64,000 nt of DNA, taken from Anaerolineales bacterium. GTDB taxonomy: Bacteria; Chloroflexota; Anaerolineae; Anaerolineales; RBG-16-64-43. The stretch is from positions 71,268 through 135,267 of the forward strand of contig JBEKHT010000002.1 of NCBI GenBank assembly GCA_050012135.1, written 5' to 3'. The position numbers and the translations under genes are program-made. The notes beneath the pieces were generated by a model. That model saw nothing but the letters and a program-made list of their open reading frames with translations, did no database searches and was not told where the DNA came from. Shown here piece by piece: positions 4,770-45,411 of the stretch (its first letter is position 1; each line of letters starts with the position of its first letter).

Positions 4770-5024
4770 TTATCTTGTCTTGGTGTCTTTCGCAGACTGA
4801 GAGCGCAACAATCGGTAGCGCACGATCCCAACATACACCCGGTAGGTTCCAAATGCAACGAGGAGCAAGGACAAAAGGAACGCGGCAGGTGTGTAGATTC
4901 CAGCGGAAACGCAGCGAACCAGGATGGCGATCCCCAATGGAATCATGAGCGCGCCAAGCAGAAACCGATAGCCGTCCGACCAAGTGGCGCGTTCGGGCGG
5001 TGGAACGAGGCGCCTCGGCCGCAT
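4770..5024 (-). CDS. small 2-TM membrane protein
   Basis: 84 aa with two hydrophobic helices (FLLGALMIPLGIAILV, AAFLLSLLLVAFGTY). The ATG directly abuts the permease stop. Confidence 0.5.
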   Translation of the reverse strand: MRPRRLVPPPERATWSDGYRFLLGALMIPLGIAILVRCVSAGIYTPAAFLLSLLLVAFGTYRVYVGIVRYRLLRSQSAKDTKTR

Positions 5025-10658: not shown

Positions 10659-13600
10659 GTGGCCATTTTCCCGCTTCCTGTAGGACCGGGGTACCGCGCC
10701 GCACGTCCTGCCAGGTTCACCGTCCCGCGCACACCGTCGGACCTTCTTGAGCGTCCGCGCCTTACCGAATTCATCCAAAGACACCTCAATCGAAAACTGA
10801 TCCTGATCTCGGCTGCGCCTGGGTACGGCAAGACCTCCTTGGCTGTAACCTTTGCCCATCAAGCCGATTTCCCTTTGGCCTGGCTGTCCCTCGACGAAAC
10901 TGACCGAGACATCGTCACCATGGTGAACGACCTCTTCCAGTCGCTCCACCGAGCATTGCTTGACTGGTTGCCGCCGCCTCCTGAGTCGCTGGGGCTTCCT
11001 TCGGCGGCGAGTCAGCCGGTAAGCCTTGGGCTTGCGCTCACACAGGCTCTGGACCAAGCCGCGACGGATTTCACCGCACTGGTCATCGACGATTTCCACT
11101 TGGTCGATGATTCGCCTGCGATCATCGAGTTCTTCGATTCCTTCTTTGAGACGCTTCCCCCGCAACTGCACGTGATCCTGCTCAGCCGGCAAATCCCTCC
11201 CCTTCGCATTGCGTCGCTCGCCGCAAGACAGGAGATAGCCGGCCTGAGTGAAGAGCACCTGCGATTCACCCCCTCTGAAGTTCAAGCGCTGCTGGAGAAG
11301 CGCAACAACCTTACCTTGCCGACCTCAGACGCAGAAGCGCTGGTCTCGCACACCGAGGGTTGGATCACCGGGATTCTGCTCAGCAGCCAGCTAATCTGGC
11401 GAGGCTTGCTCAGCAACGTCGGCCTGCGGCGTGAGCAGGAGAGCATGCTCTACGATTACCTGGCCGAGGAGGTCTTAGAGCAGCAGCCTCAAGACCTTCG
11501 CACGTTCCTGTTGGAAGCATCCGTTCTTCCCGAGATGGATGGGGCGGCCTGCGACGTGGTCCTTGGCCGTCCCGGAGACAGCGCTCGGATGCTTGAGCAG
11601 CTTGAAGCAAAGCGGCTCTTCATCAGCGCCGTGGGGGATCCGCAGCCCACATACCGCTTCCACCATCTTTTCCGCGAGTTCCTGCTGGCCAGGCTTAGGC
11701 AGAAGAATCCCCTGCGCCTTCAGCAACTCCAGCGCCGGGCTGCCGAACAATACGAACTAAGTGGGATGCCGGAGGCTGCTTTCAACCTGTATGTCGCCTG
11801 CGGAGATCTTGCTCGCGCGGGGTCTATGGCTGAGGCCAACGCACAGAGCCTGTTCGAATCCGGAAGGCGAGAAATCCTGCTTCAGTGGGGGAAGCAACTC
11901 GAACAGATTTCACTGGAGGTCCCAAGATTGCAGTTCTGGGTGAGCAGAACGCTGTGCGATCGCGGGGAGATCGAGGTTGCTCAGGAGGCTGCTGATCTTG
12001 CCCAATCGGGATTCGAGAGGCGTTCCGACAAGAATGGTCTGACGAACGTTGAACTGATAAACGCCTGGTTGAACTTCCTGAAAAGTGACTACCGTTCGGG
12101 GCTCGCTCGAGCGCTTGCAGTACTAAGTCGTGCGGAAGGGGAGGAGTTGCCTCTGGAGACGAGGGCAATTGCTGAGCGGTATGCAGGCAGGTGCGAGCTT
12201 GAGCTTGGAAGAGCTCAATCGGCGCTTGACCACCTCAAGAGGGCTGCCACCTGGTTCGCGCAAGTCGGAAACGAGTATAGCCACGCGGTGACATTGACGG
12301 ACTTAGCTCTGGTGCTAAGGGTCTTGGGCAAGACTGCAGAGGTTTCGCAAACCCAGCAGCAGGTTCTCGCCGTCTGGAGGAAACTTGGCGTCCCGGGACA
12401 TCTGGCCATTGTGCTGAACAACGTCGGTTATGACATGCATATGCTCGGGCAGTACCAATCGGCGCGAGCCGTATATGAAGAGGCTTTGGAGTGGGCCAGG
12501 AAGTCAGGCGAAAGGCATGCGCAGGCTGTCGTGCTGATCAGCCAGGCTGACCTGCTCCGAGATCTGGGTGACAGCCAGCTTGCAGCCGATCTCTATAGCG
12601 TGGCAAACAAGCTGGCGCAGGAGGCGAGTGATAATGTGTTGCTTTCTTACATCTTCTGGGGTATGGCATTCATCAATCGCTCCGCCGGCAATTTCCCGGC
12701 CTCCCTCGAATGGCTGCGCCGAGCTGACTTAGCCGTAAGTGCTTCTGAAGAAAACTCAGCGCCAACGAACGGGGCGCTTCGCGGGGCTGTGCTTACAGAA
12801 ATGGGAGACCGCGAGCAGGGCTTGAAGTGCCTTCGAAAGGCAGCAGAAGACTTGGAGGCGCGCGGAGGAGATTTTGCCAATCTTTCCTGGGTCTCTCTCC
12901 TCCTCGCCCGTTCGCTCTGGATGAATGGATCTGCGGAGGAAGCGACAAGGCGACTCAAGCGCTCATTGGATCTGGCCAGAATGCTTGGGTACGACCAGAT
13001 GCTGGTCAGAGAGGCACTTGCGAGCAGGGAATTCCTAAGCACGGTCGCAAACTCTGAGGATCTTGGGGCACAGGTCAGGTCACTGCTGTTGCGTGCAGAG
13101 AATCTGCCGCCACCCGAGCAGGGCGCACGAGAGTTGCACGAGGGAGTCAGTTCGTCTGTCGTTGAGGTCAACGCATTGGGGCCCGCAAGAGTCGTTGTTG
13201 ATGGGCGGGAGATACCACGCACAGAGTGGGTGAGCCAGCGCGCCAGGGAAATGTTCTTCTTCTTGGTTGACAAGACATCAGTTCCCCGAGACGAGCTGCT
13301 TGCATTGTTCTGGCCCGAGACTCCTCAAGGAAGGGCGCTGACGAACCTTTATCAGACCTTGTATCGGATGCGCCGAGCGCTGGGGGGAGAGGCTGTTATC
13401 TTGAGGGATCAGGTTTGTCAGCTGGCTGAGAATCTTGATGTTCGATATGACGTGGCGGCGTTTGAGGAGGGCGCATCCCGGGCGCTCGCTTTGCCGCATC
13501 AGGACCTGCGCCGAATAGGCGCCCTGGAGCACGCAGTGGATCTGTATCTTGGGGATTACCTGGCCTACCTTCCCGTCGAATGGGCTAGGCAGCGCAGGGA

Positions 13601-13880
13601 GGAATTGTCGGAGACCTATGTGCACGTGCTTCGTGAATACTCGGACGAATTGGTTGTGCTGACCAGGTATGGCGATGCGAGAGCTGTCCTCAGCCGAGCT
13701 CTCGCGGTGGAGCCACTGCGAGACGACCTGCACCAGCGCATGATGCGAGTCTTGGCGTCGCAGGGACGTATTCATGAGGTGGTGGAGCACTATCAACGCT
13801 ATTGCGAATCGTTGCGGCGCGAGATGGGACTTGATCCACCGCCTGAGACTCGATCCCTTTACGGTAGCCTAATCGCCTAA
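10659..13880 (+). CDS. STAND (MalT-like P-loop) - TPR - OmpR-type wHTH - BTAD transcriptional regulator, paralog 1
   Basis: 1073 aa. Walker A is LILISAAPGYGKTSL, followed by a long helical/TPR-like middle. The C-terminus is SARP-like: ALGPARVVVDGREIPRTEWVSQRAREMFFFLV..LFWPE..LYRMRRAL, then BTAD (..RYGDARAVLSRALAVEPLRDDLHQRMMRVLASQGRIHEVVEHYQRYCESLRREMGLDPPPET). GTG start. Confidence 0.85.
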   Translation: MAIFPLPVGPGYRAARPARFTVPRTPSDLLERPRLTEFIQRHLNRKLILISAAPGYGKTSLAVTFAHQADFPLAWLSLDETDRDIVTMVNDLFQSLHRALLDWLPPPPESLGLPSAASQPVSLGLALTQALDQAATDFTALVIDDFHLVDDSPAIIEFFDSFFETLPPQLHVILLSRQIPPLRIASLAARQEIAGLSEEHLRFTPSEVQALLEKRNNLTLPTSDAEALVSHTEGWITGILLSSQLIWRGLLSNVGLRREQESMLYDYLAEEVLEQQPQDLRTFLLEASVLPEMDGAACDVVLGRPGDSARMLEQLEAKRLFISAVGDPQPTYRFHHLFREFLLARLRQKNPLRLQQLQRRAAEQYELSGMPEAAFNLYVACGDLARAGSMAEANAQSLFESGRREILLQWGKQLEQISLEVPRLQFWVSRTLCDRGEIEVAQEAADLAQSGFERRSDKNGLTNVELINAWLNFLKSDYRSGLARALAVLSRAEGEELPLETRAIAERYAGRCELELGRAQSALDHLKRAATWFAQVGNEYSHAVTLTDLALVLRVLGKTAEVSQTQQQVLAVWRKLGVPGHLAIVLNNVGYDMHMLGQYQSARAVYEEALEWARKSGERHAQAVVLISQADLLRDLGDSQLAADLYSVANKLAQEASDNVLLSYIFWGMAFINRSAGNFPASLEWLRRADLAVSASEENSAPTNGALRGAVLTEMGDREQGLKCLRKAAEDLEARGGDFANLSWVSLLLARSLWMNGSAEEATRRLKRSLDLARMLGYDQMLVREALASREFLSTVANSEDLGAQVRSLLLRAENLPPPEQGARELHEGVSSSVVEVNALGPARVVVDGREIPRTEWVSQRAREMFFFLVDKTSVPRDELLALFWPETPQGRALTNLYQTLYRMRRALGGEAVILRDQVCQLAENLDVRYDVAAFEEGASRALALPHQDLRRIGALEHAVDLYLGDYLAYLPVEWARQRREELSETYVHVLREYSDELVVLTRYGDARAVLSRALAVEPLRDDLHQRMMRVLASQGRIHEVVEHYQRYCESLRREMGLDPPPETRSLYGSLIA

Positions 13881-14128
13881 CCCCCAATCTAGTGTAGGGG
13901 AGGACCGCTCCAGGAATAGCCACGCTTCCTCAGTGACTCCTTCACTGGGGCCTTGTGGAGAATACTTTCTTCGCGAGGCGGCAAGTCACGAGGAACAGCA
14001 GAAAGCGTCCAGAAAGCCACACCCCTCGTCGTCGGACAATCAAGGTAAAGCAAGCCGCAACACCGGGAACGGGACAATAACCGTACGTTTGGTCCGGATC
14101 TGATCAAGGGTGCGGAGTCCAGAACGCC

Positions 14129-14150
14129 TGTTCGTTGCGTGTTCGTTGCG
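14129..14150 (+). repeat. perfect 2 x 11-bp tandem direct repeat TGTTCGTTGCG (possible wHTH/BTAD regulator box)
   Basis: Read directly: tgttcgttgcg at 14129-14139 and again at 14140-14150. It lies 74-95 nt upstream of the ATG at 14224. The regulatory role is inference only. Confidence 0.9.
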
Positions 14151-14153
14151 CCG

Positions 14154-14444
14154 TCATCTGAGCGTCGAGGCAATCTTCATAAAGTATTGGCAACAGTCTT
14201 GCACGGCCAAAAGGAGGCCCACAATGAAAAGCAGCAGCACGACCCACGGTAACTTCAGGACTCCGCCATCTGGTGGCGGCAGCTTCATGCCGCCGAGTGG
14301 CGGCGGCAGCTTCATGCCGCCGAGTGGTGGCGGCAGCTTCATGCCGCCGAGTGGTGGCGGCAGCTTCATGCCGCCGAGTGGTGGCGGCAGCTTCATGCCG
14401 CCGAGTGGTGGCGGCAGCTTCATGCCGCCTTGTTGCGGGGGCAT
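14154..14444 (-). CDS. alternative reading: 96-aa proline-rich repeat protein with a C-terminal TM anchor (mutually exclusive with the plus-strand call)
   Basis: MPPQQ-(GGMKLPPPL)x5-GGMKLPPPD-GGVLKLP-WVVLLLFIVGLLLAV-QDCCQYFMKIASTLR. The uninterrupted 15-residue hydrophobic helix is hard to get by chance. There is a silent CTG/TTA Leu switch in the degenerate last repeat. The SD is only weak (AGGA), and the ATG is just 36 nt from the divergent ORF. Confidence 0.35.
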   Translation of the reverse strand: MPPQQGGMKLPPPLGGMKLPPPLGGMKLPPPLGGMKLPPPLGGMKLPPPLGGMKLPPPDGGVLKLPWVVLLLFIVGLLLAVQDCCQYFMKIASTLR

Positions 14445-14448
14445 CTAG
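14224..14448 (+). CDS. candidate 74-aa repeat peptide MKSSSTTHGNFRT-(PPSGGGSFM)x6-PPCCGGI (mutually exclusive with the minus-strand call below)
   Basis: AAGGAGG at 14211-14217 lies 6 nt before the ATG. The ORF is co-directional with the regulator upstream and the SD-led ORF 32 nt downstream. The copy-1 variant is fully silent in this frame, including an AGT/TCT serine switch. Confidence 0.4.
   Translation: MKSSSTTHGNFRTPPSGGGSFMPPSGGGSFMPPSGGGSFMPPSGGGSFMPPSGGGSFMPPSGGGSFMPPCCGGI
14263..14429. repeat. 27-bp tandem repeat, 6 full copies plus a 5-nt partial copy
   Basis: The unit is ccgccgagtggtggcggcagcttcatg. Copies start at 14263, 14290, 14317, 14344, 14371 and 14398. Copies 3-6 are identical, copy 2 has 1 change (ggc), and copy 1 has 3 changes (cca tct). 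It is open in 4 of 6 frames. Confidence 0.97.
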
Positions 14449-14480
14449 TCCTGGTCGTTGCGCATAGCTTCGGAGGCTCA

Positions 14481-14774
14481 ATGTCAGCAACAGGATTGAA
14501 TCGACTTGTGGGAAGGGCAGTGGTGAGCGAACGGTTTTGCGCGGAGCTGCTCGACGGGCGCCGTGATGAGCTCCTTACGGGATACGACCTGAGCCCGGAG
14601 GAACACAGCGCGGTGATGGGAATGCATGCAGACGCCTTGCACGAGTTCGCGGCTGCGGTCGATCACCTGATAGTCACCAGCCAGAGCAAGGCGAATGTGC
14701 CCCAGTGGGCTCCGAGCGCAAACTCGCTCGTCTGGAGAATCCGCGAGCCGAACGGAGTTCCTCGGTCACGCTAG
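14481..14774 (+). CDS. small protein with an NHLP/Os1348/LigA-like helical N-terminal domain
   Basis: ORF 14430..14774(+) trimmed to the ATG at 14481, with GGAGG 4 nt upstream. LNRLVGRAVVSERFCAELLDGRRDELLTGYDLSPEEHSAVMGMHADALHEFAAAV resembles the helical-hairpin family seen in NHLP-clan leader peptides and LigA subunits. This is a pattern recollection, not a search result. Confidence 0.5.
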   Translation: MSATGLNRLVGRAVVSERFCAELLDGRRDELLTGYDLSPEEHSAVMGMHADALHEFAAAVDHLIVTSQSKANVPQWAPSANSLVWRIREPNGVPRSR

Positions 14775-14975
14775 GCGCCTCTCGATTCTCGCTGTTTTGT
14801 TGCCAGAGGCGACTTGTTGCATCCGAGACCGAGAGACGTGAGTCAGAGGAGGCCCGATGAGCGATCGGGCCACGGCTTCGAGGATCCTGTGTGAGGGATT
14901 CCGGTTGATTTCGGTTAGCGATAGGGTGATGGAAGAACAGCTGGTTGGCTGATTGCTCGGGGCGCGCCCCAGGGG

Positions 14976-16376
14976 GTGGCGCGCCCAGCAACCAGGAGGC
15001 CGAAAACCACTGCGATCATGACGACTGAGAGAACGGATTCTGTGGAAAAGATCCCTAGCATTGCTGAGGGAGGCGAGAATTTGCCTCCCGGTTTCAACTC
15101 CGTGCCCAGTTCAATGGCAGATCGAACCCTAGATGTGGGGGGCGCTCTTTGGAACGTCCTACGCATGGCTGGGCGTGCGATAGGTGCAGACCTATCTCAA
15201 ATCTATTTACTGGATGGGGAGCAAGGGAATCTCAGCCTATCTGCGTCGATCCCCGATGGGGCTCAGGGATTCGGCGTGCCGCTTTCGATCGTCACTATTC
15301 TGAAGAACGCAATCGACACCAACTCTCCGGCGCGGTTGAACCGATCTGAATTGGGACCCGATTGGAGCCACACAAAAGTGCGAGCCGCTCTCTTTCTTCC
15401 CCTCGTTTGGGATGGGACGCCGTTGGGGGGGATGGCCTTCCTCTGGTCGGATGAGGGGCTGGAGAGAGGTGAGGGCTCCTTGGACATGGGTGCGCTCCTG
15501 GCTCCGCAAGTAGCCCTTTCCATAGAGAATGCAAAGCTGCGCGAGGCTCTCGAGAGGACACGCACTGAGTTGATGAGTCAAGTTCAAGAGCTTATTGGAA
15601 CGATTCAGCGGACCCAACATGAGGCTCGGGAATCGTCGGAGCAAACCCTGCTCTTCGGGCAAAGGCTCCGCACTCCTCTGACCACACTTGAACTCTACCT
15701 GGACCTTATCTGCGACCACCCGGACCGGGCGCGCGATTACGCGGAGGTGCTAGGCCGGGAAATCAAGCGAATGCAGTCGATGGTAGAGGAGATGTTTACA
15801 CTTGGCCAGGCGCAGGTAGCCAAGGTTGAGCCGGATCGAACAACCGTTGATCTCTCAGTGCTGGCTCGCGAGATCGTGAGTTCAACGGAGGTCCTCGCGA
15901 AATCTCAAGGCCAGATGCTTCGCCTGAGACTGGATCCCTCATGCCCATTGGTCAGCGCCGACCTGCAGATGCTAAAGCAGGCTATCGCGAACTTGCTTGC
16001 AAACGCCGTTCAATACACACCCAGAGGCGGGAGAGTTAGCTTGACCGTCGAGCCCCGCTTCCGAGGGGGTCGAACGTGGGCAACGGTGACGATTTCAGAT
16101 ACGGGCTATGGCATCTCGCATGATGAGCTCGGCCACATCTTCGAGGCTTTCTACCGGGGAAAGGCGGCGAGGGTTTCGGAGGTCGCGGGAATGGGCCTGG
16201 GATTGACGATCAGCCGGAAGATTATCGAGACCCATGGCGGCAAGATCGAGGTTCAAAGTGCGGTCGGGGAAGGATCCAATTTCACCATATGGCTCCCAGC
16301 TTGCGCAATTTCAGTCCAGATTGTGTCTCAACCCACCGACAATTCAATCAGGACGCGCGCTGAGCGGAAAACCTAG
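14976..16376 (+). CDS. GAF-domain sensor histidine kinase with a degenerate H-box (Gln at the phospho-His position)
   Basis: 466 aa. The N-terminus is GAF-like. The HisKA-like helix is LLFGQRLRTPLTTLELYL (canonical SHELRTPL). HATPase_c is intact (ANAVQYT, DTGYGI, GMGLGL). Start is uncertain: GTG 14976, ATG 15018 or 15114. Confidence 0.8.
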   Translation: MARPATRRPKTTAIMTTERTDSVEKIPSIAEGGENLPPGFNSVPSSMADRTLDVGGALWNVLRMAGRAIGADLSQIYLLDGEQGNLSLSASIPDGAQGFGVPLSIVTILKNAIDTNSPARLNRSELGPDWSHTKVRAALFLPLVWDGTPLGGMAFLWSDEGLERGEGSLDMGALLAPQVALSIENAKLREALERTRTELMSQVQELIGTIQRTQHEARESSEQTLLFGQRLRTPLTTLELYLDLICDHPDRARDYAEVLGREIKRMQSMVEEMFTLGQAQVAKVEPDRTTVDLSVLAREIVSSTEVLAKSQGQMLRLRLDPSCPLVSADLQMLKQAIANLLANAVQYTPRGGRVSLTVEPRFRGGRTWATVTISDTGYGISHDELGHIFEAFYRGKAARVSEVAGMGLGLTISRKIIETHGGKIEVQSAVGEGSNFTIWLPACAISVQIVSQPTDNSIRTRAERKT

Positions 16377-21753: not shown

Positions 21754-24700
21754 ATGAAGGGGGAAGAAGACCCGGAATCCGAATCCGGTGTTCGTCACGC
21801 AATCAGCCCCCCTGTTTTCGGACGGGATAAGGTCCACCGTGAACGGCTTGTGGATCTGATCCGCGCATATCTGCCTCGCAAACTGATCGTAATTGCCGCG
21901 CCGGCTGGCTACGGAAAGACAACCCTACTGGCCGATTTCTCAGCGCACTCGGAATTCCCGGTTTGCTGGGTGCGGCTCTCTGATCTGGACGCTGACCCGA
22001 TGCGACTGGCCACCTTGCTGATCGCCTCCCTTTCTCGGCGCTTTCGCACCCTCGGCCGCCATCTTGGCGCAGAAGGGCTCGTCGGGCTTTCTGCGGAAGG
22101 AATGGCTCATGCCCTCACCCACACAATTAACATAAAGGTGACGCGTCCATTCATCCTTGGGCTTGATGATGTCCAATGCCTCAACAGCTCGAAGTCGGCA
22201 CTATCTCTTCTCGACGAATTCATTCGCAATCAACCGGATCAAGTAACGCTCCTTGTCGCAGGACGAGCTGTGCCCGAGATCCCAATGACGCGACTGGTTG
22301 CAGAAGGAGAGGTGGCCGCGATCGGTCCTGCCGATCTTGCACTGACCAGGGAGGAATTGATCGCCGTGGAGCACTCGCGCATGGGAGTGGATCTGGATGC
22401 CAAAACGGCCGATAGGATTCTGGATGAGACCGGTGGGTGGGTAATGGGGGTGATTCTATCGGGGAATGCCTCTGTTCGGGGGATGCAGATTCTAGCCGAA
22501 TCGACGCAACCTGCGGTCTATGATTACCTGGCCTCAGTCGTGCTGGGAAAGCAGCCAGAAAAGTTGCGTCGTTTTATGCTGGAAGCCTGCGCCCTTCCGG
22601 TCATGACCGCAGAGGCGTGCAATGCCGTGCTCGATATGGCGCACAGTCACCATTATCTCGAGCAGCTCGTCCGACGCGGATTGTTTGTCGTGGCAGCCGA
22701 GGAACACCCGAGAACCTATGAGTTTCACTCCCAATTCCGCCGATTCCTCATTGAGGCTCTCCGCTCGACAGACGGAAACAGACTTCGGAGGCTTCAAGCC
22801 CGGTCCGCGTCTTATCTTGCCAAACATGGGGAACCGGAAGAGGCAGTCGAGCTGTATATCGAAGCGGGCGACCCGAGGAGGGCCGGGCGCCTGGCGGGGA
22901 GGAATGCGACGCGACTTGAGCGAGAGGGCAGATACGGATTGCTGGAGGCGTGGAGTGAAAACCTCCGCAGGCGCGGCGTGTTTGATCCCCATGTTGATCT
23001 GTCGCTCGCCTTTGCGTTAGTGATGCAAGGAAGAGGGCCGGAAGCGCGGGCCCTGATCAAGAAATGGAGAAGGGCCGCCGGCAGCAGCAATGCAGAATTG
23101 CGTCGGAAGTACCACCTGGCCCTGGTGCACCAACTGGTATTCGCAAGCAGATTTGAGAAGGCCATCAAGACCATCAGACGTTTCACTTGGCGGGCAAGGG
23201 CTCGAGGGGACCGGGAAGGTCGCGCAGACTGCCTGCTGCTGGAGGCTTTCTGCGACGTGGAGAGGCGAGCCGATCTGACACGGGCGGCTGATCTGGCCCT
23301 TGACGGGGTCCGGATTGGGGAAAGGCTCTCAGATGCGGTGCGACTTGCTGGTGCCCTGTCCAATGCGTCGGCTGCCGTCTGGGCCGCTTGCGGGCCTCTC
23401 GAAGCAATGCCTCTCGCGAGACGCGGAAACAAGCTAGCTTCGGTTGGCTCGTCACCCACCAGGAAAGCCGCGCTCTTGAATAATCTGGGCTCTCTTGAGC
23501 ACTCGATGGGCAGGTACGAAGCTGGATTTCAGCACCTTAACGAGGGGCTGGTTCAGGCGCGCAGGGCAGACGCACGCATGTGGGAATCGCAGCTCTCCCT
23601 CAGTCTGGCGGACCTGCTTGCCGACCTTGGGCTCGTGAACCAAGCGAGTTCCTACTACCGTTCTGCTGCTTCAGTGGGAGAACGGGCGTGGGGCATTCGT
23701 CAAAGGGTGGTTTCCTGCATCCAGGAGGCAAATTGCTACAGAAGGAACGGGGACCCGGAGCGAGCCAGGCGAGTCATGGCGTCTGTTCGCCCGGGCTCCG
23801 GTCGCCAGTGGAAGCCGCAATTGCAACTGGCCAAGGCCGCATTGGAAGTCTCCGAGCATCCCTCCGGCGCGCGCAGGATCGTTAGAAGACTCTTCACGGC
23901 AGGCCAACCTTCTCTTTATGCGGAGGAGGAAGTCTTCGCACACTATCTCCTCTCGCGAGCGGCCTGGGGTCTTTCCGAAGGAGCCTCCGCGAAGAAATAC
24001 ATGAGCGAGGCGCTCTCCAGAGCCAAGCAAATCGGTGCGGAGCAGGTCATTGCCCGAGAACTTCAGGGAGACGAAGCCTTCCGCAGCTTCGCGGAAGAGC
24101 AGTTCGCCGAGTCGGACTTCTTCGCCGTCGTTATCACTCGAATGGCGGACATGAAGGCATTCGCCAAGAAACTCAGGGCAAATGGCATGGCACCTGGCCG
24201 CGCGGCTAGGATCCGAGTCTCAGCCATGGGCGGGAATGAAGTCGCCTTGAATGAACGGGCGCTCCGCGCGCTGCCTCCACTTGCCCGCCAACTGGCGGCC
24301 TATCTGGCTGATACTGGTCAAGTTCAACGGGATCGGCTCTTGGAGGACTTCTGGCCGGCATCTTCGAAGGGTCGCCAAACAGCCAACTTCCATAGCACCC
24401 TTTACAGCCTTCGTCGCGCTCTCGGAAAGAGCGCCGTCCTTCAGGAGGCGGGCACGTACCTGTTCAATCCAAAGGCGAGCATCCAATTCGATGTTGACAT
24501 GTTTGAACAGGCCGCAGTGCAGGCTCAATCCAGCAGCACGCCGTCCGAGGATCGGCTGGCGGAACTCAACGGTGCTCTCGAAATGTACAGGGGGGAATTC
24601 CTTCCTGGATGTGGCCAGGAGTGGGCGGCCCGCAGGCGCGAGATTCTGACCGAGAAGTATCTGGCCCTCACGCGAGCCTTCGCTGAGGCCGCCCTTCAAG

Positions 24701-24921
24701 CTGGCCGTCCCCGCGAAGCGGCCGAGAGATTGCGTTCGGCCTTGGCGGTTGATCCCTATGACGACGATCTGAATCTGCTCTACCTCGAAGCGCTCGGCCA
24801 AATGGGGCGGCGCGGGCAGTTGGTCACCCACTATCATCGGTATTGCAAGCTCCTGGCCACCGAGCTGGGGCTCGACCCTCCGGACCAAGTCCGATCCCGG
24901 TATACAGACCTCATTGGGTAG
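21754..24921 (+). CDS. STAND (MalT-like P-loop) - TPR - wHTH - BTAD transcriptional regulator, paralog 2
   Basis: 1055 aa with the same architecture as 10659..13880. Walker A is LIVIAAPAGYGKTTL. The C-terminus is VSAMGGNEVALNERALRALPPLARQLAAYLA..FWP..LYSLRRAL, then BTAD (..ALAVDPYDDDLNLLYLEALGQMGRRGQLVTHYHRYCKLLATELGLDPPDQ). Confidence 0.85.
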   Translation: MKGEEDPESESGVRHAISPPVFGRDKVHRERLVDLIRAYLPRKLIVIAAPAGYGKTTLLADFSAHSEFPVCWVRLSDLDADPMRLATLLIASLSRRFRTLGRHLGAEGLVGLSAEGMAHALTHTINIKVTRPFILGLDDVQCLNSSKSALSLLDEFIRNQPDQVTLLVAGRAVPEIPMTRLVAEGEVAAIGPADLALTREELIAVEHSRMGVDLDAKTADRILDETGGWVMGVILSGNASVRGMQILAESTQPAVYDYLASVVLGKQPEKLRRFMLEACALPVMTAEACNAVLDMAHSHHYLEQLVRRGLFVVAAEEHPRTYEFHSQFRRFLIEALRSTDGNRLRRLQARSASYLAKHGEPEEAVELYIEAGDPRRAGRLAGRNATRLEREGRYGLLEAWSENLRRRGVFDPHVDLSLAFALVMQGRGPEARALIKKWRRAAGSSNAELRRKYHLALVHQLVFASRFEKAIKTIRRFTWRARARGDREGRADCLLLEAFCDVERRADLTRAADLALDGVRIGERLSDAVRLAGALSNASAAVWAACGPLEAMPLARRGNKLASVGSSPTRKAALLNNLGSLEHSMGRYEAGFQHLNEGLVQARRADARMWESQLSLSLADLLADLGLVNQASSYYRSAASVGERAWGIRQRVVSCIQEANCYRRNGDPERARRVMASVRPGSGRQWKPQLQLAKAALEVSEHPSGARRIVRRLFTAGQPSLYAEEEVFAHYLLSRAAWGLSEGASAKKYMSEALSRAKQIGAEQVIARELQGDEAFRSFAEEQFAESDFFAVVITRMADMKAFAKKLRANGMAPGRAARIRVSAMGGNEVALNERALRALPPLARQLAAYLADTGQVQRDRLLEDFWPASSKGRQTANFHSTLYSLRRALGKSAVLQEAGTYLFNPKASIQFDVDMFEQAAVQAQSSSTPSEDRLAELNGALEMYRGEFLPGCGQEWAARRREILTEKYLALTRAFAEAALQAGRPREAAERLRSALAVDPYDDDLNLLYLEALGQMGRRGQLVTHYHRYCKLLATELGLDPPDQVRSRYTDLIG

Positions 24922-29239: not shown

Positions 29240-30373
29240 CTACAGCATCAGGCCATAGCGCTCAAGGGCCAGGTTGAGGATCTCGTTGATCAGCACGTCG
29301 TAGGCCAATCCTTCGGCCCTGGCGATTATGCACATGTCGCTGACCTGCGGGTTCAGGCCGGGCAGAGTATTGATCTCGACCAGGTTGGGTTCCCCCTCGG
29401 CATTCAGGCGGAAATCCACGCGGCTGCAATCGGCCGCCCCAATCGAGAGAAACGCGGAGCGGGTGAGCCGATACATTTCCTTCTGGAGCGCGGGAGGAAT
29501 GTCAGCGGGGCAGAGATAGAGCGGGGCGCCGTCCTCCCCTGGGATGATCAGCTTGGCCTGCGCCCCGTAAACTCCCCGGCCCGCGCCCACATTCGGGTCG
29601 ATCTCCAGAACCGGGAAGTAGTGGAAGCCGTCGTTTCCATAAAGATCCGGGTTCGCCCTGCGCTTGGCGTTGCTGTGATTCCCAATGACGCCCACCGTGA
29701 ACTCGCGCCCGGGCAGAAAACTCTCAACCAGCGCGGGCTGGCGGTAGTCCTGAAGGATGCGTTGAACCTGGTCGCGCAGATCTTGGGGGGTCTGCACAAT
29801 GGAGCTGGGCCCCACGCCTTTTCCCGATCCCTCCCGCAACGGTTTCACGAAAAGAGGAAACCTCAGCGTCGAGCGCAATGTCGACTCGATGTCGCTGAAC
29901 ACCTGGAAGGGCACCGTGGGGAGCCCCCGATCGCGCCATAGCCTCTTGGTGATGGTCTTGTCCAGTGAGATGGCGTTGGCCAGGACGCGCGAGCCCGTGT
30001 AGGGGATGCCCAGCATCTCGAGCAGTGCAGGCACCTGAGCCTCGCGGGAATCGCCATGCAGGCCCTCGCAAATGTTGAAGCAGATGTCCGGGCGCGTCTG
30101 GCGAATGGTGTCAATCAGGGTCACGTCGCCGTTTAGGAAGGTGGCGCGGTGACCAGCCGTGCGCAAGGCCGCAAGCATGGCCTCCACGGTCTCTTCGCGA
30201 TCGTATTCGACAGTCTCATCCGGCGGCGCCTCGTCGGGGTGCGGAACGTCTTTCTTTAGGTTAGCGAGCACCGCGACATGGAGGGGCGGAACGAGGCTGC
30301 GCGGCTCCGCCCGACTTGCGGGGATGGTACCTGATCCAGGGGGCTCCTTTTTTCGCTTTTCGTCTTGCATCAT
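29240..30373 (-). CDS. ATP-grasp enzyme, D-alanine--D-alanine ligase family
   Basis: 377 aa. Motifs: ICFNICEGLHGDSREAQVPALLEMLGIPYTGS..DKTITKRLW..FPLFVKPLREGSGKGV..EINTLPG. Confidence 0.8.
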   Translation of the reverse strand: MMQDEKRKKEPPGSGTIPASRAEPRSLVPPLHVAVLANLKKDVPHPDEAPPDETVEYDREETVEAMLAALRTAGHRATFLNGDVTLIDTIRQTRPDICFNICEGLHGDSREAQVPALLEMLGIPYTGSRVLANAISLDKTITKRLWRDRGLPTVPFQVFSDIESTLRSTLRFPLFVKPLREGSGKGVGPSSIVQTPQDLRDQVQRILQDYRQPALVESFLPGREFTVGVIGNHSNAKRRANPDLYGNDGFHYFPVLEIDPNVGAGRGVYGAQAKLIIPGEDGAPLYLCPADIPPALQKEMYRLTRSAFLSIGAADCSRVDFRLNAEGEPNLVEINTLPGLNPQVSDMCIIARAEGLAYDVLINEILNLALERYGLML

Positions 30374-39611: not shown

Positions 39612-40330
39612 CCCGTGGGGAGCATGCGCTCACGGGCGGCGGCCACCGTCTCATCCCCTTTGGACGCACGGGCCAGGGGCGGGCTGGCATTCCGCGATGG
39701 GATCAAACCGAGACTAATCCCAGGGCCGCTCCACGCCCTCCTCGACCCGTTCATGGCTCTTCCCTGTGGCTCGGCCGAAGCCAACCAGGACGTCTGGCGC
39801 ACCCTGTTTGAACAAGCCCGTCCGAAGAAAGGAGAGGGTGTCCCGGTGCCATGATCTCGTGATGGAACCATCGTTTCTCGCCAACATGGTCAATTGCCTT
39901 GAAACGAAGGGGAGGAAGAGCAAGGAGGCATGGGCTAGGCACTTGGTCGTGCGTAGTAACAATTCCAATGACCAAAAGCGACCACGCCCTCCGAATTGCG
40001 GTGTGTCATCTGTCGGTTCTTTCCGAGGGAAAACGAGTGAAACAGGCCAGCGGATTTCGAGAAAACGCCTGACTTGATGCTATCAGAACTTACTCCGAGG
40101 TAAGTGGTGACAAAAGTCCTAATTTGGCTCGAGGCAACATGCTAATATGAGATTTGGTGAATTGGTTCCCGCGAGCTGCGGAGCTCGCCTTTCCTCGCAG
40201 GGGCTGGGCCGGGTTGGATGGGCAGGGTGGTGCCACCGGAACGCTCGCTTGGGGCGCAGGAGGGATTAGCTCCCCAAGGTTCCCTGGTGCCGAACGGTTG
40301 GGGCCAATACCATCTCGGCGGTGGGCAGCG

Positions 40331-41026
40331 ATGGAGAGGGGTTCGAAAGGGACTGACATGGCGCGTCGTGTGGAAGTGGTAGAAAACATCCTAGGTGCGA
40401 ATGAACGGATTGCGGGGGAGAATCGGCGGCTCCTGGATGATGCGCACCTTCTTGCAGTCAACCTGATGGCTTCGCCAGGCGCGGGGAAAACCTCGCTGAT
40501 CGAGAAGACGCTTGAGACCCTCTCCCCACGCTTGCGCATACTGGTCATCGATGGCGACCTGGCCACAGACCTGGACGCTGAACGTGCCCGTGCGGCGGGC
40601 GCCGATGCGCTTCAGATCAACACAGGCGGAGAGTGCCACCTGGATGCAAACATGGTGGGCCGGGCTCTCCATCAGTTTGACCTGCAGCGGTACGACCTGC
40701 TGATCATCGAGAACGTCGGCAACCTGATATGTCCGGCCGCTTTTGCTCTGGGCTCGCACAAGAGCATTCTGATCGCCTCGGTTCCAGAGGGGGATGACAA
40801 GCCTTACAAGTACCCGACCACCTACCGGGGGGTCGATGTGCTGGTGATCAACAAGGTGGACCTGTTGCCGTACGTCCCCTTCCGAATGGACCGGTTCCAG
40901 AAGGGGGTGGAACTGCTCAATCCGGGGGTCGTGACCTTCCCGCTCTCGTGTCGAAGCGGGGAAGGCGTGAGTGCCTGGACCGATTGGTTGGTCAGGGAGA
41001 TTCGCGAGCGAAGGCCTGGGGAATGA
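40331..41026 (+). CDS. hypB: hydrogenase nickel-incorporation GTPase HypB
   Basis: ORF 40154..41026(+) trimmed. Motifs: ..ENILGANERIAGENRRLL..NLMASPGAGKTSLIEKT..ENVGNLICPA..INKVDL. Start is ATG 40331 or 40358. Confidence 0.9.
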   Translation: MERGSKGTDMARRVEVVENILGANERIAGENRRLLDDAHLLAVNLMASPGAGKTSLIEKTLETLSPRLRILVIDGDLATDLDAERARAAGADALQINTGGECHLDANMVGRALHQFDLQRYDLLIIENVGNLICPAAFALGSHKSILIASVPEGDDKPYKYPTTYRGVDVLVINKVDLLPYVPFRMDRFQKGVELLNPGVVTFPLSCRSGEGVSAWTDWLVREIRERRPGE

Positions 41027-43398
41027 CTGAGGTAAATAAGATCCGGGGCGCAAGCATACGCGTGCGGGGGGTCGTGCAGGGGGTCGGTTTTCGACCCTTT
41101 GTCTACGCCCTGGCCAGGCGCCTGGATCTCAACGGCTGGGTGCGCAACACCTCCGCGGGAGTGGAGATTGAAATCGATGGCTCGTCCCGCCATCTTGAGG
41201 AGTTCGTTCGCGACCTTCGTTTGCTTGCCCCTCCTCTCGCGCGGATCGACCAAGTCCAGGTGGAGCAGCGACCGGCCAACGGCTACAGGGAGTTTGCCAT
41301 CCTGGCTTCGGAGCCGATCCCACAGGCCTTCCAGCCGGTGTCCCCGGACATGGGCCTGTGCACCGATTGCCTTCGCGAGCTATTTGATCCTCAGAACCGC
41401 CGGTATCGATATCCTTTCATCAACTGCACCAACTGCGGCCCTCGGTTCACCATCATTGAGGACGTGCCCTATGACCGGGCCAACACGACCATGGCCGCCT
41501 TTGCCATGTGCGCTTCCTGCGCCTCCGAGTACGAGGACCCAGGCGATCGACGCTTCCACGCCCAACCGGTTGCCTGCCTGAGCTGTGGGCCTCAGATCTG
41601 GTTGGAGGAGGGGGGCCAAACTCTGGCGAAACGCGAGGAGGCTCTGCGCATGGCCCGCTCGTATTTGGCCGATGGCAGAATCCTGGCGGTGCGGGGACTG
41701 GGGGGATTCCATCTAGCCTGCGACGCAACCAATTCACAGGCTGTGGCCGAACTCCGGCGCAGGAAGTTGCGGGTCGACAAGCCCTTCGCCCTAATGGTCT
41801 GGAATCTGGCGGCGGCCCGATTGATCTGTGATCTGGACCCCGAGGAGGACAACTGGATTCAATCGCAGCAGCGGCCGATTCTCCTGCTGCGGCGAAAAGG
41901 GAATACCTCCGTTGCGAGCGAGGTGGCTCCTGGGCAGAGAACTCTTGGGGTCATGCTGCCGTACACCCCGCTGCACTTCCTCCTTCTTGAGCCGAGCGAC
42001 GGATACCCGCGCGCCCTGGTCATGACCAGCGGAAACCTGAGCGAGGAACCCATCGCCACGAACCTCGGGGAGGCCCGGCAGCGGCTGGCCGCGGTGGCGG
42101 ATGCTTTCCTTATGCATGACCGGGAGATCCGCACCCGGTGCGACGACTCGGTCGTCCGCGTGTTCTCAGGCTGGCGGATGTCAAATGGGGTGATGGATTC
42201 CCAGTCCGTCCTGCTTCCGCTTCGTCGCTCCAGAGGCTACGCTCCTTTCCCTGTCAAGTTGCCCTGGGACTCCCCAAGCGTTCTGGCCGTAGGGGGTGAG
42301 CTCAAGAACACTTTTTGCCTCACCCGTGCAGACTATGCTTTCATGAGCCAGCACATCGGGGACCTTGAGAACTACGAAACGCTTCGTTCCTTCGCTCAGG
42401 GGATCGAACATTATGAGCGTCTTTTTCATGTCCGGCCCGAGGCCCTAGCTTGCGACCTCCACCCAGACTACCTCGCCACCCGGTATGCGGAGGAGCGGGC
42501 GGCGCAAGCGAATCTCCCCCTGACTCGCGTACAGCATCACCACGCCCACATTGCAGCGTGCATGGCTGAGCACGGGGAAGATGGGAGCTCCCCAGTCATT
42601 GGGGTCGCCTTTGACGGCACGGGTTATGGCTCCGATGGGACGATCTGGGGCGGGGAGGTCCTGATCGCTGACTACGAAGGATTCGAGCGAGCCATCCATT
42701 TGGAGACAATCCCTCTGCTTGGTGGCGAGGCGGCTGTGCGCGAACCCTACCGCCTGTCACTGGCTTGGTTGTGGCGCTCCGGGCTGGAGTGGGACGCTGA
42801 CCTTCCCCCGGTGCGGCACGCCGTCGTGGCATCCAGGCAGGCCCTGAAGAGAATCCTCGAAGGAGGAACCGGAACCTCCCAGTCGGGAGGCCTGAATGCG
42901 CCTCTTACCTCCAGCATGGGCCGTCTTTTCGATGCGTTCGCGGCGCTGGTCGGATTGCGGGAGGAGGTGAACTACGAGGCGCAGGCGGCGATGGAACTGG
43001 AAGCGGTCTGCGACCCCGAGGAGCGCGGGTCCTATCCCTTTGAGTGCCATGGTCAAGTCATCAGCCCGATTCCCCTTTTCATTCAAGCCGCTGCGGAGCT
43101 TCGTTCTGGCACCCCCTTGGCCCGCATGGCAAGCCGCTTCCACAACGCGGTGGCACGGATGGTCGCGGAGACTTGCGCCCAGCTATCGCGCGAGCGAGGA
43201 CTGAAGAAAGTAGCACTCAGTGGAGGGGTCTGGCAAAACCAGTTCTTGCTCAGCCGGACCGTGCCGCTCCTGGAAGCGCAAGGTCTCGGGGTGCTCCTGC
43301 ACAACAAGGTTCCGAGCAATGATGGGGGGATCGCCTTGGGCCAGGCGGCTGTTGCTGCCCATCAGCTGGTCCGATCCGCAGGGATCGGGAGTGTCTAG
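41023..43398 (+). CDS. hypF: carbamoyltransferase HypF
   Basis: ORF 40948..43398(+) trimmed to MTEVNKIRGASIRVRGVVQGVGFRPFVY (acylphosphatase domain). It has two CxxC zinc fingers plus YrdC-like and Kae1-like parts. ATGA overlap with hypB. Confidence 0.95.
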   Translation: MTEVNKIRGASIRVRGVVQGVGFRPFVYALARRLDLNGWVRNTSAGVEIEIDGSSRHLEEFVRDLRLLAPPLARIDQVQVEQRPANGYREFAILASEPIPQAFQPVSPDMGLCTDCLRELFDPQNRRYRYPFINCTNCGPRFTIIEDVPYDRANTTMAAFAMCASCASEYEDPGDRRFHAQPVACLSCGPQIWLEEGGQTLAKREEALRMARSYLADGRILAVRGLGGFHLACDATNSQAVAELRRRKLRVDKPFALMVWNLAAARLICDLDPEEDNWIQSQQRPILLLRRKGNTSVASEVAPGQRTLGVMLPYTPLHFLLLEPSDGYPRALVMTSGNLSEEPIATNLGEARQRLAAVADAFLMHDREIRTRCDDSVVRVFSGWRMSNGVMDSQSVLLPLRRSRGYAPFPVKLPWDSPSVLAVGGELKNTFCLTRADYAFMSQHIGDLENYETLRSFAQGIEHYERLFHVRPEALACDLHPDYLATRYAEERAAQANLPLTRVQHHHAHIAACMAEHGEDGSSPVIGVAFDGTGYGSDGTIWGGEVLIADYEGFERAIHLETIPLLGGEAAVREPYRLSLAWLWRSGLEWDADLPPVRHAVVASRQALKRILEGGTGTSQSGGLNAPLTSSMGRLFDAFAALVGLREEVNYEAQAAMELEAVCDPEERGSYPFECHGQVISPIPLFIQAAAELRSGTPLARMASRFHNAVARMVAETCAQLSRERGLKKVALSGGVWQNQFLLSRTVPLLEAQGLGVLLHNKVPSNDGGIALGQAAVAAHQLVRSAGIGSV

Positions 43399-43488
43399 GG
43401 GAGGCGGCGGTCGGCCCCGACGCTGATCCTCCGGTTGTCCGAAGGCGTGCAAGCAGGTCGGTTGCGGAGTGGAATAGGGAGGTGAGCT

Positions 43489-43755
43489 GTGTGCCTAGCG
43501 GTTCCCGGGAAGATTCTTGAGATCCATCAGACCGATGGGGTTGACATGGCCCAGGTCGACTTCGAAGGAGTGCGGCGGGAAGCCTGCCTGATGTATCTTC
43601 CGGAAGCGAAGGTGGGAGACTACGTCCTGGTCCATGTCGGCTTTGCGATGAGCCTCGTGAGTCAGGAGGAAGCTCTGGCCTCCCTGGATCTTCTCCGGCA
43701 GGTTGCCAGCGCGGGAGCGGAAGACGACACAGTCGCCGGAGATGCCCTCTCATGA
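43489..43755 (+). CDS. hypC: hydrogenase assembly chaperone HypC
   Basis: 88 aa with the [13 protein letters not shown]-terminus. GTG start after GGGAGGTG. Confidence 0.9.
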
Positions 43756-44867: not shown

Positions 44868-45411
44868 CCTCTTGGCGCCTTTCTACGATCGGGTGATAGG
44901 CGCCCCAGCCATTGACCGCCTGACGCAGCTCCTGTGTCTGCCGATCGCGGGGAGGGTTTTGGAGGCTGGCGGAGGGACCGGACGCAAGGCCTCGCTTTTC
45001 CAGGGCCAAGCCGGGAAGGTGGTGGTCGGCGATCTTTCGTTCCCGATGCTCCGGGCAGCGCAGCGGCGCAGAGGGCTGGGCCTGGTCCAGTGCCGCACCG
45101 AGAGGCTTCCTTTTGTCACAGGGTGTTTCGAAAGAATTCTGCTGGCGGACGCCCTGCATCATTTTCAGAATCAAATGGAGGCCCTGGGCGAGGCCGTACG
45201 CGTCCTGCACCCAGGCGGTCGACTGGTGATCGAGGAACCCGACATCACGAAATTGTCGGGCAAGGTGCTTGCGCTGGCGGAGAGGCTGTTTCTAATGCAT
45301 AGCCGGTTTCTTTCGGCAGATGAGATCACGACCTGGATCTCTCGGCAGGGACTCCGGCCCTTGGTTGACCGGGATGATGGTTTCTCGGTACGAATCGCGG
45401 TGGACAAATGA
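44851..45411 (+). CDS. class I SAM-dependent methyltransferase embedded between hypD and hypE
   Basis: 186 aa. [64 protein letters not shown]. Overlaps the hypD end by 17 nt and the hypE start by 4 nt. Confidence 0.8.

Follow-up and report, generated by a model that had tools for sequence, protein, structure and literature searches.

A 64,000-nucleotide stretch of DNA from an Anaerolineales bacterium (Chloroflexota; GenBank assembly GCA_050012135.1, contig JBEKHT010000002.1, positions 71,268 to 135,267 of the forward strand), hereafter called the window, contains six 27-bp tandem repeats that very probably form part of a real gene on the plus strand. This gene, open reading frame 1 (ORF1), encodes a small repeat peptide and lies between the gene of a large STAND-TPR-SARP regulator (REG) and a second small gene (ORF2), whose product matches families of the NHLP clan. 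It is likely that the window peptide belongs to a conserved gene cassette and is controlled through direct repeats located upstream of it. We rate the cassette as conserved in Chloroflexota and previously undescribed, with an AfsR/AfsS-type pairing that has an NHLP-clan partner as the variant. The locus resembles an antibiotic gene cluster less than it does the AfsR/AfsS regulator pair of Streptomyces, and an AfsR/AfsS-like explanation of the locus as a whole is our tentative preference.

The 27-bp repeat very probably belongs to a plus-strand gene

Tandem Repeats Finder (TRF) reported positions 14271–14429 as by far the strongest tandem array in the window (period 27, 5.9 copies, 98% matches, score 311). 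An earlier reading of the letters alone (the sequence-only reading) had described six head-to-tail copies, with copies 3 to 6 identical, and both the sequence and TRF bear this out (Table 1). Unit 2 carries a one-base change (GGC for GGT), and unit 1 has CCA TCT where the other units have CCG AGT. ORF1 starts with an ATG at 14224 and ends with a stop codon at 14446–14448. As had been pointed out before, an AAGGAGG Shine-Dalgarno (SD) sequence precedes this ATG by 6 nt, and another ORF with its own SD begins 32 nt further on.

To compare related loci, we used five versions, i.e., the window and four further ones (L009, L007, L010–L012, and L008). The SD, the ATG, a 13-codon leader, 5 to 6 units, and a stop directly after the array are kept in all five. 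The GGAGG core and its spacer to the ATG are likewise kept in every version, the full AAGGAGG being present in four and GGGAGG in L007; the stretch immediately 5′ of the SD varies in length by 2 nt. Over 15 distinct units, position 3 of the repeat is either Ser (AGC, AGT, TCA, TCC, TCT, or TCG) or Cys (TGT), and the same nucleotides read on the minus strand give L, D, H, or E. The maintenance of Ser through both of its codon families (TCN and AGY) is a hallmark of selection on the plus-strand product. The codon observations made earlier hold as well: TCT versus AGT in unit 1 is silent on plus and D versus L on minus.

The minus strand of the same DNA contains an ATG-led 96-aa ORF, (GGMKLPPPL)n with a hydrophobic end, exactly as earlier described. 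The sequence-only reading had considered it as a tail-anchored proline-rich membrane protein with a C-terminal helix and had called the coding strand unresolved. It was right that both frames are open in the window, but the orthologs maintain the plus frame only. The minus ORF is broken in three of the five: in L010, a stop follows directly after ...GGVLN and the helix is lost; in L008, there is no ATG, GTG, or TTG before or within the repeats; and in L007, a 2-nt indel shortens the helix. These breaks refute the membrane protein, and we consider a minus-strand gene of any such kind extremely unlikely. Gene callers did take the minus ORF in four of the six same-species contigs shown, with a 69-aa shortened form in the other two minus calls, and its LLLFIVGLL segment is unchanged despite three substitutions between the window and L008. 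That conservation is accounted for by the fact that the DNA of the minus-strand “helix” doubles as the start region of ORF1, comprising its SD, the spacer, the ATG, and the initial codons. In addition, the minus ORF is oriented opposite to every neighboring cassette gene, and one of its repeat positions would have to accept L, D, H, or E.

The ratios of nonsynonymous to synonymous differences (pN/pS; Nei-Gojobori) were 0.34 on plus and 0.30 on minus for the whole ORFs, 0.18 and 0.28 for the repeats, and 1.16 and 0.31 for the leader. A low minus-frame ratio is expected, since the minus frame shares third codon positions with ORF1; for this reason, pN/pS cannot separate the strands and was dropped as a discriminator. 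We therefore decided on the strand from the integrity of the ORFs and the switching between codon families. One figure speaks for the other strand: over the 13-codon leader, it is the minus frame that looks more constrained (0.31 versus 1.16).

In most of the contigs L001–L009, gene callers predicted the minus ORF (96, 89, or 69 aa); the plus ORF was called in two, and nothing was called in L010–L012. Since public gene calls are thus mostly on the wrong strand or absent, the ORF1 family as a whole hardly shows up in protein databases.

Evolution of the array in orthologous loci

The exact ORF2 protein is present on many peat metagenome contigs and is named by NCBI as a hypothetical protein of Anaerolineales metagenome-assembled genomes (MAGs). 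A search of genome contigs with the single ORF2 protein returned one related MAG only. The repeat persists in relatives, as the array was found in all five related species or strains recovered, where ORF1 has 65 to 74 aa with 5 to 6 nine-aa repeats and a partial unit. In L009 (98% ORF2 identity to the window), ORF1 contains (PPSGSGSFM)x6 followed by PPCGAGS; in L007 (91%), it contains (PPCGGGSFM)x6 with one PPCAGGSFM and then PPCGMGS. In the more distant versions, the units vary at their ends: L010–L012 (68%) have MNSRHSTLGQFRT PPSGSGSFM/FV/HV/FI/CV PPSGSGS, and L008 (67%) has MNSNRKIRGVWRT PPSGSGSFV/LV/HV/LV/LM PPSGSGS.

In the window, L009, and L007, units are near-identical within a genome, and one residue differs between genomes in all copies (PPSGGGSFM, PPSGSGSFM, and PPCGGGSFM). 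Judging from these units, the array in the three versions is undergoing concerted evolution: slippage or unequal exchange makes the units change together between strains. Between L008 and L010, each unit has its counterpart (e.g., unit 3 is ...SHV in both); the differences are mainly synonymous or affect the final two residues, and PPSGSGS is invariant. Copy number varies, too. Six units are present in four JGI assemblies (L001 and L004–L006) and in the window, and three units with the same flanks were found in two ENA MEGAHIT (k141) assemblies (L002 and L003, 9755–9964). The three-unit allele may reflect true variation in copy number, or identical units may have been collapsed during assembly.

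A profile of the five ORF1 peptides searched against 5.8 billion proteins gave a single match, a 103-aa (PGSGSGxFL)n ORF of Chloracidobacterium located beside kdp genes, an unrelated context. This ORF (L037, 902–1213; Chloracidobacterium sp. MAG, GCA_017354435.1) has five 9-aa units PGSGSG-x-F/L-L/V that resemble PPSGSGS-x-x, and no regulator or ORF2-like gene was called near it. It may be convergent, or it may be a spurious ORF in a DNA repeat.

ORF1 is probably part of a cassette with glycine-tail peptides

Distant relatives of ORF2 were followed through two context look-ups and 22 metagenome loci (the search alignment comprised 10 closer sequences). The common gene order is a STAND-TPR-SARP regulator, a small ORF, an ORF2-like gene, and a gene for a two-component or second-messenger protein. 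A REG homolog (27 to 59% identity) is located directly upstream on the same strand wherever the sequence suffices, with a same-strand match in 14 loci; there is no upstream match in L029 and L030, and the match is on the opposite strand in L036. The last gene of the cassette encodes an M78-like protein (162 to 176 aa), a single-domain response regulator, or a protein with a receiver domain (REC) in a REC-GAF-GAF-HD arrangement. In the window clade, a GAF histidine kinase fills the slot that is taken by REC, REC-GAF-HD, or M78-like proteins in related cassettes. The M78-like proteins of L013 (4182–4697), L014 (4434–4964), and L024 (6400–6888) gave Peptidase_M78 scores at the Pfam threshold. HExxH is absent from those of L013 and L014, the two seen in full (e.g., ...RRYGMACALFSAL...), and the M78-like cassette proteins are probably inactive, peptide-binding pseudo-peptidases.

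In the roughly 20 related loci that have enough upstream sequence, the small ORF preceding the ORF2-like gene has a run of Gly at its end; in L036, this run is reached only across an apparent frameshift. Fifteen transmembrane-type ORF1 proteins align as one family with a basic N-region, Pro and Arg residues that are near-invariant, a hydrophobic helix, and GGGG preceded by another near-invariant Pro. The Gly tail follows either an AxA-type site (CPLGSGGGCVG, CGLASGGGCGG, CPSTAGGGCGGA, CPAASSGSGGCKY, and TPVSGGGGGTGG) or the helix directly (MPSGGGGGV, APIGGGGGGY, APGNGGGGI, and GPVGGGGGS). A short ORF1 without a helix, MNSRCEAVKRALRQPPYDGGGGG, was found in L020/L021 and consists of a 14-aa leader and a single PPxxGGGGG unit. 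The motif P-x-x-GGG, with which the ORF1 proteins of related cassettes terminate, occurs in every unit of the window ORF1, and the comparison strongly indicates that the window ORF1 is a tandemly amplified form of the glycine-tail peptide. We draw this link from the cassette position and the shared motif, homology being unprovable for peptides so short.

The cassette occurs on metagenomic contigs and, where the taxon is known, in Anaerolineales MAGs, and its proteins are unnamed hypotheticals. In full-text literature searches, neither the cassette nor Gly-tail peptides in such a setting were found described, and no Os1348/Frankia_peptide subfamily associated with STAND-SARP regulators was found either.

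Direct repeats upstream of ORF1 and possible control by REG

Upstream of ORF1 lies a 22-bp box made of a perfect 2 × 11-bp direct repeat (Table 1). Its GTTGCG-N5-GTTGCG core is kept in all five orthologs, and no other exact copy of the box was found in the window. Exact 6- to 12-nt direct repeats with a period of 11 to 12 are located 38 to 95 nt upstream of the ORF1 start in 12 of the 14 cassette lineages, and their sequence is lineage-specific. The chance of finding such a repeat per 160 nt is 5% for at least 6 nt, 1.4% for at least 7 nt, and 0.3% for at least 8 nt. In SARP binding sites, direct repeats are spaced by one helical turn and adjoin a poor −10 element (PMC10936776). A weak −10-like hexamer adjoins the window box and may serve as the −10 next to SARP-type repeats; a sigma-70 consensus scan found no promoter.

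A second conserved stretch, the block at 14180–14204, has one change each in L008 and L010. It includes TGGCA-N6-TTGCA at 14188–14203, the only exact match to a sigma-54-like pattern in the window. We rejected a sigma-54 reading of this element: the start would fall inside the SD, there is no enhancer-binding protein nearby, and the pattern is unenriched in the window. The RNA fold of the 5′ region was no better than that of shuffled sequences (z = −0.07).

Given that the direct repeats are SARP-like and that the C terminus of REG matches the AfsR SARP region, we infer that REG binds the 22-bp box and activates ORF1-ORF2. ORF1 and ORF2 are probably a two-gene unit downstream of REG and probably activated by it, and activation would proceed through the direct repeat at 14129–14150. 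The terminator-like hairpin at 14882–14901 lends weak support to such a bicistronic unit. REG would thereby switch on the adjacent small repeat protein, and the ORF1 repeats, serving as short linear motifs in multivalent form, would bind back to a partner protein and tune its output; the likeliest partner is the TPR sensor of REG. AfsS-like feedback through repeat binding of this sort is conceivable, although we regard it as doubtful.

ORF2 encodes an NHLP-clan-like protein with regulatory partners

The ORF2 ATG (14481) is located 32 nt past the ORF1 stop and is preceded by GGAGG at 14472–14476. The sequence-only reading had recognized an NHLP/Os1348-type domain in its product, and profile matches at E values of ~1e-9, just under the model cut-offs, agree with this assignment. 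Residues 5–63 match NF038399 (Os1348 family) end to end with an E value of 1.1e-9 and 38.3 bits, the cut-off of 40 not being reached, and PF14407 (Frankia_peptide), also end to end, with an E value of 7.3e-9 and 36.2 bits, the cut-off of 48 not being reached. The cassette homolog L031 passes NF038399 with 51.2 bits.

An exhaustive profile search with ORF2 yielded 201 clusters at 50% identity with E values of ≤1e-3. Members are mostly ~70 to 130 aa long, with a few longer fusions, and share an N-terminal domain of ~65 aa; their tails are unrelated. The ORF2-type N-terminal domain is fused to a receiver domain in P0013 (205 aa) and to an M78-like domain (Peptidase_M78, IrrE-like) in P0126 (324 aa), i.e., to the same types of proteins that are encoded by separate genes 3′ of ORF2 homologs. 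These fusions point to regulation rather than to a cleaved leader. An AlphaFold2 model of ORF2 is all-helical over residues 3–70, with a predicted local distance difference test score of 70 to 80, and its tail (72–97) mostly scores below 50. Foldseek comparison of the model with PDB gave no match with an E value below 4, and the ORF2 sequence and family profile had no relevant match in PDB. Tail residues 73–97 show 80 to 84% identity in orthologs whose N-terminal domain is 64 to 67% identical. A Gly-Gly or similar cleavage motif was not found after the helical domain. No second ORF2-like gene was found in the window, including beside the second regulator described below.

The regulator and the gene neighborhood

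Pfam and NCBIfam confirm the NTPase, TPR, and BTAD parts of REG, so that the repeat does lie downstream of a STAND-BTAD regulator, as proposed earlier. Pfam domains are AAA_16/AAA_22, TPR_12, TPR_MalT, and BTAD (931–1069); NCBIfam models match MalT over residues 17–532 and the AfsR SARP region over residues 829–1067. ORF1 starts 343 nt past the REG stop on the same strand, and this order is kept in five orthologs. Differences between REG orthologs are concentrated in residues 421–830, which correspond to the TPR (9.8% versus 2 to 5% elsewhere in L007). In L009 (a 1.02-Mb contig), a 1-nt frameshift close to codon 926 (~4945–4965) divides the regulator into 926 aa and a BTAD piece of 142 aa, which is either a long-read assembly error or a strain pseudogene. 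A second, paralogous STAND-TPR-BTAD regulator of 1055 aa is encoded at 21754–24921 (plus strand), without an ORF1- or ORF2-like partner downstream. Its equivalent in L010–L012 (14617–15021) is only a 134-aa BTAD fragment, so the second regulator appears to be decaying there.

The start of the histidine kinase downstream of ORF2 was placed by gene callers at 15081 or 15042, and the longest ORF begins at 14976. Some gene finders predicted, in the interval from ORF2 to the kinase, a 31-aa ORF (14857–14952, plus strand) that overlaps the terminator-like hairpin.

Window genes were scanned as 30 larger ORFs over 7979–62768 (Pfam and NCBIfam), setting aside the first 6 kb and short ORFs, together with the adjoining 4.5 kb upstream, which precomputed Pfam calls on the matching contigs cover. 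Scanned genes encode Sua5, an amino-acid permease, YbeY, a 7TM-HD protein, NUDIX, TrmI, an M20 peptidase, a Ddl-like ligase, CTP synthase, Rpe, HypF/D/E, hydrolases, HtrA, and an acyl-CoA-type ligase. The earlier remark that no maturase is adjacent to the repeat is upheld by these scans, which detected no RiPP (peptide made by ribosomes and then modified post-translationally) enzyme (radical SAM, YcaO, LanM, or ATP-grasp ligase), protease, or exporter among the scanned window ORFs. Likewise, no maturase, peptidase, or exporter was found in the sequenced flanks of more than 20 related loci (annotated or tblastn-screened for cassette genes); the contigs are mostly 1 to 7 kb long, and this negative rests mainly on the few loci with at least 7 kb of flanking DNA.

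The Ddl-like protein (29243–30373), the sole ATP-grasp among the scanned window ORFs, was considered as a graspetide ligase and rejected: it matches D-Ala-D-Ala ligase models, is located 15 kb away, and has housekeeping surroundings. PADLOC defense models gave nothing specific in the window, and an Rfam search of 13700–15200 returned only sub-threshold eukaryotic snoRNA/miRNA noise. A hydrogenase maturation set at 40154–46469 (plus strand; a CobW/HypB-like GTPase, HypF, HypD, and a HypE-like AIR-synthase-family protein) is unrelated to the repeat.

Table 1. Features of the ORF1-ORF2 locus in window coordinates.
Feature	Positions	Strand	Basis or remark
REG, 1073 aa: MalT-like STAND NTPase, TPR sensor, and C-terminal SARP (OmpR-type winged helix-turn-helix and BTAD)	10659–13880	+	Pfam, NCBIfam
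Perfect 2 × 11-bp direct repeat TGTTCGTTGCG, candidate SARP box (afs-box-like)	14129–14150	+	TRF, 100% identity
Weak −10-like hexamer TCATCT (TAATCT in L010), 3 nt past the 22-bp box	14154–14159	+	In conserved CGT(C/A)ATC block
Conserved block TAAAGTATTGGCAACAGTCTTGCAC	14180–14204	+	23 of 25 positions invariant in five orthologs; flanks diverge
ORF1 SD, AAGGAGG, 6 nt 5′ of the ATG	14211–14217	+	GGAGG core conserved
ORF1, 74-aa repeat peptide MKSSSTTHGNFRT(PPSGGGSFM)x6PPCCGGI	14224–14448	+	Intact in 5 of 5 orthologs
Six 27-bp tandem units, each translated as PPSGGGSFM	14263–14424	+	Sequence and TRF
Antisense 96-aa ORF, (GGMKLPPPL)n with a hydrophobic end	14154–14444	−	Judged to be an open frame accompanying the repeat, not a gene
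ORF2, 97-aa Os1348/Frankia_peptide-like (NHLP-clan) small helical protein	14481–14774	+	Hidden Markov model matches; clade-conserved C-terminal tail
Terminator-like hairpin and T-run 3′ of ORF2	14882–14901	+	Consensus match; 1 found versus 1.2 expected by chance
Cytoplasmic GAF-HisKA-HATPase histidine kinase	15081–16376	+	Pfam; syntenic in 5 of 5 orthologs

Alternative explanations of the locus

The locus could instead encode an orphan RiPP, with ORF1 as a multi-core precursor and/or ORF2 as an NHLP-type precursor whose Ser/Cys/Gly-rich units a maturase from another place in the genome would modify (e.g., by crosslinking or by forming azol(in)es) before their cleavage and export. The Gly-rich composition and the Ser/Cys interchange at one repeat position recall substrates of the thiazole/oxazole-modified microcin type. 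The Os1348 and Frankia_peptide matches, with a cassette homolog above cut-off, point in the same direction, as do the conserved N-terminal domain and hypervariable tails of the ORF2 family, which resemble leader/core precursors, and the link of Os1348 itself to antibiotic activity (PMC7726476). However, Os1348 was detected as a stable full-length dimer (PMC7726476), ORF2 has no Gly-Gly motif, and ORF1 has a leader of only 13 aa with no spacer, recognition, or cleavage motif between units. No radical SAM, YcaO, LanM, ATP-grasp ligase, peptidase, or ABC exporter was seen in the scanned ORFs or the related flanks (mostly 1 to 7 kb), the conserved neighbors are regulatory proteins, and the ORF2-type domain occurs fused to REC and M78-like domains. 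We consider an orphan RiPP rather unlikely. Of the RiPP-type locus proposed in the sequence-only reading, the ORF2 family and the plus frame stand, and the multi-core RiPP locus finds no support in its surroundings, where the scanned ORFs and related flanks showed no maturase and the constant neighbors are regulatory.

A TPR regulator with an adjacent small ORF is also the layout of RRNPP systems. By analogy, ORF1 would be a pro-peptide, and its P-x-x-GGG units, once set free and exported, would be sensed either by re-import to the TPR of REG or via the GAF kinase; the six units would be six signal copies per translation and strain-specific units would be pherotypes. Such a signal would suit the 15 related ORF1 proteins, with their basic N-terminus, hydrophobic helix, often an AxA site, and a 7- to 20-aa Gly-rich tail often flanked by Cys. 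It would also suit the concerted differences between near-identical strains, the concentration of REG divergence in the TPR region, and the putative autoregulatory direct repeats upstream of ORF1. Nevertheless, in the ORF1 of the window clade neither a hydrophobic segment nor a recognizable export signal was found, there are no basic or other obvious cleavage sites between units, and the scanned parts of the window contain no transporter, processing protease, or oligopeptide permease. Moreover, the units of L008 and of L010 differ from one another at two positions, leaving no single defined signal, and altogether an RRNPP-like role is unlikely. A wider proposal, which we find improbable, is that of a peptide-sensing system of Chloroflexota in which the ligand of an NLR-like STAND-TPR-SARP factor is P-x-x-GGGG of the adjacent peptide and the NHLP-clan protein is an adaptor, not a RiPP precursor. 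The motif would be exported on a signal or membrane helix in most lineages and presented as an intracellular multivalent repeat in the window clade, and the ORF2-type adaptor would serve REC, GAF-kinase, or HD-GYP signaling proteins. If this were true, RRNPP/AfsRS-like communication or feedback would exist outside Firmicutes and Actinomycetota, and an NHLP-clan domain would have a non-RiPP role. Last, ORF1 could be a cis-regulatory upstream ORF, translated only to control ORF2 through ribosome stalling at its seven PP[S/C] motifs and Gly runs; stalling would depend on EF-P or on the supply of Pro-, Gly-, and Ser-tRNA and would modulate ORF2 translation or transcript stability. Diprolyl motifs are known stall sites relieved by EF-P, Pro-Pro opens every unit, the gap to ORF2 is short (32 nt), and the ORF1 peptide has no family match. 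Yet ORF2 has its own conserved SD, related ORF1 genes encode conserved membrane-type proteins without PP motifs, and PPSGSGS is strictly conserved through both Ser codon families, which speaks for selection on the peptide. No attenuator-like RNA structure was seen in the 5′ region, which folds like shuffled sequences (the fold excludes the ORF1-ORF2 spacer), and we regard an upstream ORF of this kind as very unlikely.

If the AfsR/AfsS-like explanation is true, the logic of an NLR-like SARP regulator paired with a small repeat protein reaches uncultured peatland Anaerolineales, well beyond Streptomyces, and the locus offers a defined cis-element and a set of naturally occurring variants with which the tuning of a STAND regulator by short repeats could be tested. 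An NHLP-clan (Os1348/Frankia_peptide) subfamily partnered with signaling proteins, and not with maturases, matters for mining tools that equate NHLP-like ORFs with RiPP precursors.

Comparison with known systems

ORF2 resembles Os1348 and Frankia_peptide proteins in being helical, with a ~65-aa domain and a variable tail, and a cassette homolog reaches the curated threshold. It differs from them in its partners, which are regulators and signaling proteins: the window has none of the GNAT, HEXXH, or SagB-type neighbors of the Os1348 cluster (PMC7726476), and the cassette lacks the ATP-grasp of the original Frankia_peptide context (PMC8939145). With multi-core RiPP precursors (cyanobactin, graspetide, and fungal dikaritin-type), ORF1 shares head-to-tail units whose copy number and sequence vary in relatives; it differs from them in its 13-aa leader and in having no inter-unit recognition or cleavage sequences and no maturase, protease, or exporter near the examined loci. 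RRNPP pairs (Rap-Phr, PlcR-PapR, NprR-NprX, and AimR-AimP) likewise combine a cytoplasmic TPR regulator with an adjacent small ORF, and the ORF1 proteins of related cassettes share with their peptides a signal-like helix and a short C-terminal peptide. In contrast, REG is a STAND NTPase with a SARP output and not an RRNPP fold, it comes from a different phylum, the window peptide lacks an export signal, and no Opp-type importer is linked.

Several points weigh against the AfsR/AfsS-like explanation. The domain order of REG is NTPase-TPR-SARP, as opposed to SARP-NOD-TPR in AfsR, and its NTPase is MalT-like; ORF2 has no counterpart in afsRS. ORF1 gave nothing meaningful in Pfam or NCBIfam and has no detectable similarity to any family. 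The spacing between the box and the best −10-like hexamer varies among lineages, and TPR regions often change faster, which makes the REG divergence weak evidence for co-evolution. Most related ORF1 proteins carry a transmembrane or signal-like helix, with the Gly tail predicted to be outside the cell; this is more in keeping with export of the peptide than with a cofactor inside the cell, so the window clade may have a different mode of action. Further differences are that PPSGGGSFM is unrelated to published AfsS repeats, e.g., NTHITD in S. avermitilis (PMC10832544), that ORF1 relatives are membrane or secreted-type peptides, that the window cassette has a linked two-component protein whereas afsRS does not, and that afsRS belongs to Actinomycetota and the present locus to Chloroflexota.

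On the other side, AfsR (SARP, NOD, and TPR) directly activates the adjacent downstream afsS via a 22-bp box of two 11-bp repeats (PMC10936776). REG is also large and also combines SARP, STAND/NOD ATPase, and TPR; ORF1 is located immediately downstream on the same strand; and two 11-bp direct repeats in the window form a 22-bp element, a candidate SARP box beside a weak −10-like hexamer, which resembles the afsS promoter (PMC10936776). AfsS proteins have 63 to 87 aa with 2 to 5 short tandem repeats and are 17 to 38% identical between species (PMC10832544 and PMC2267785); ORF1, with 65 to 74 aa and 5 to 6 short tandem repeats, similarly evolves fast between species while its repeat organization is kept. 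AfsS binds AfsR through its repeats, with affinity rising per repeat, and the promoter occupancy of AfsR is raised (PMC10832544 and PMC2267785). We favor an AfsS-like role for ORF1 because the window locus has a regulator of the same type, a small gene that is similar in placement, size, repeat structure, and rapid evolution, and a 22-bp box.

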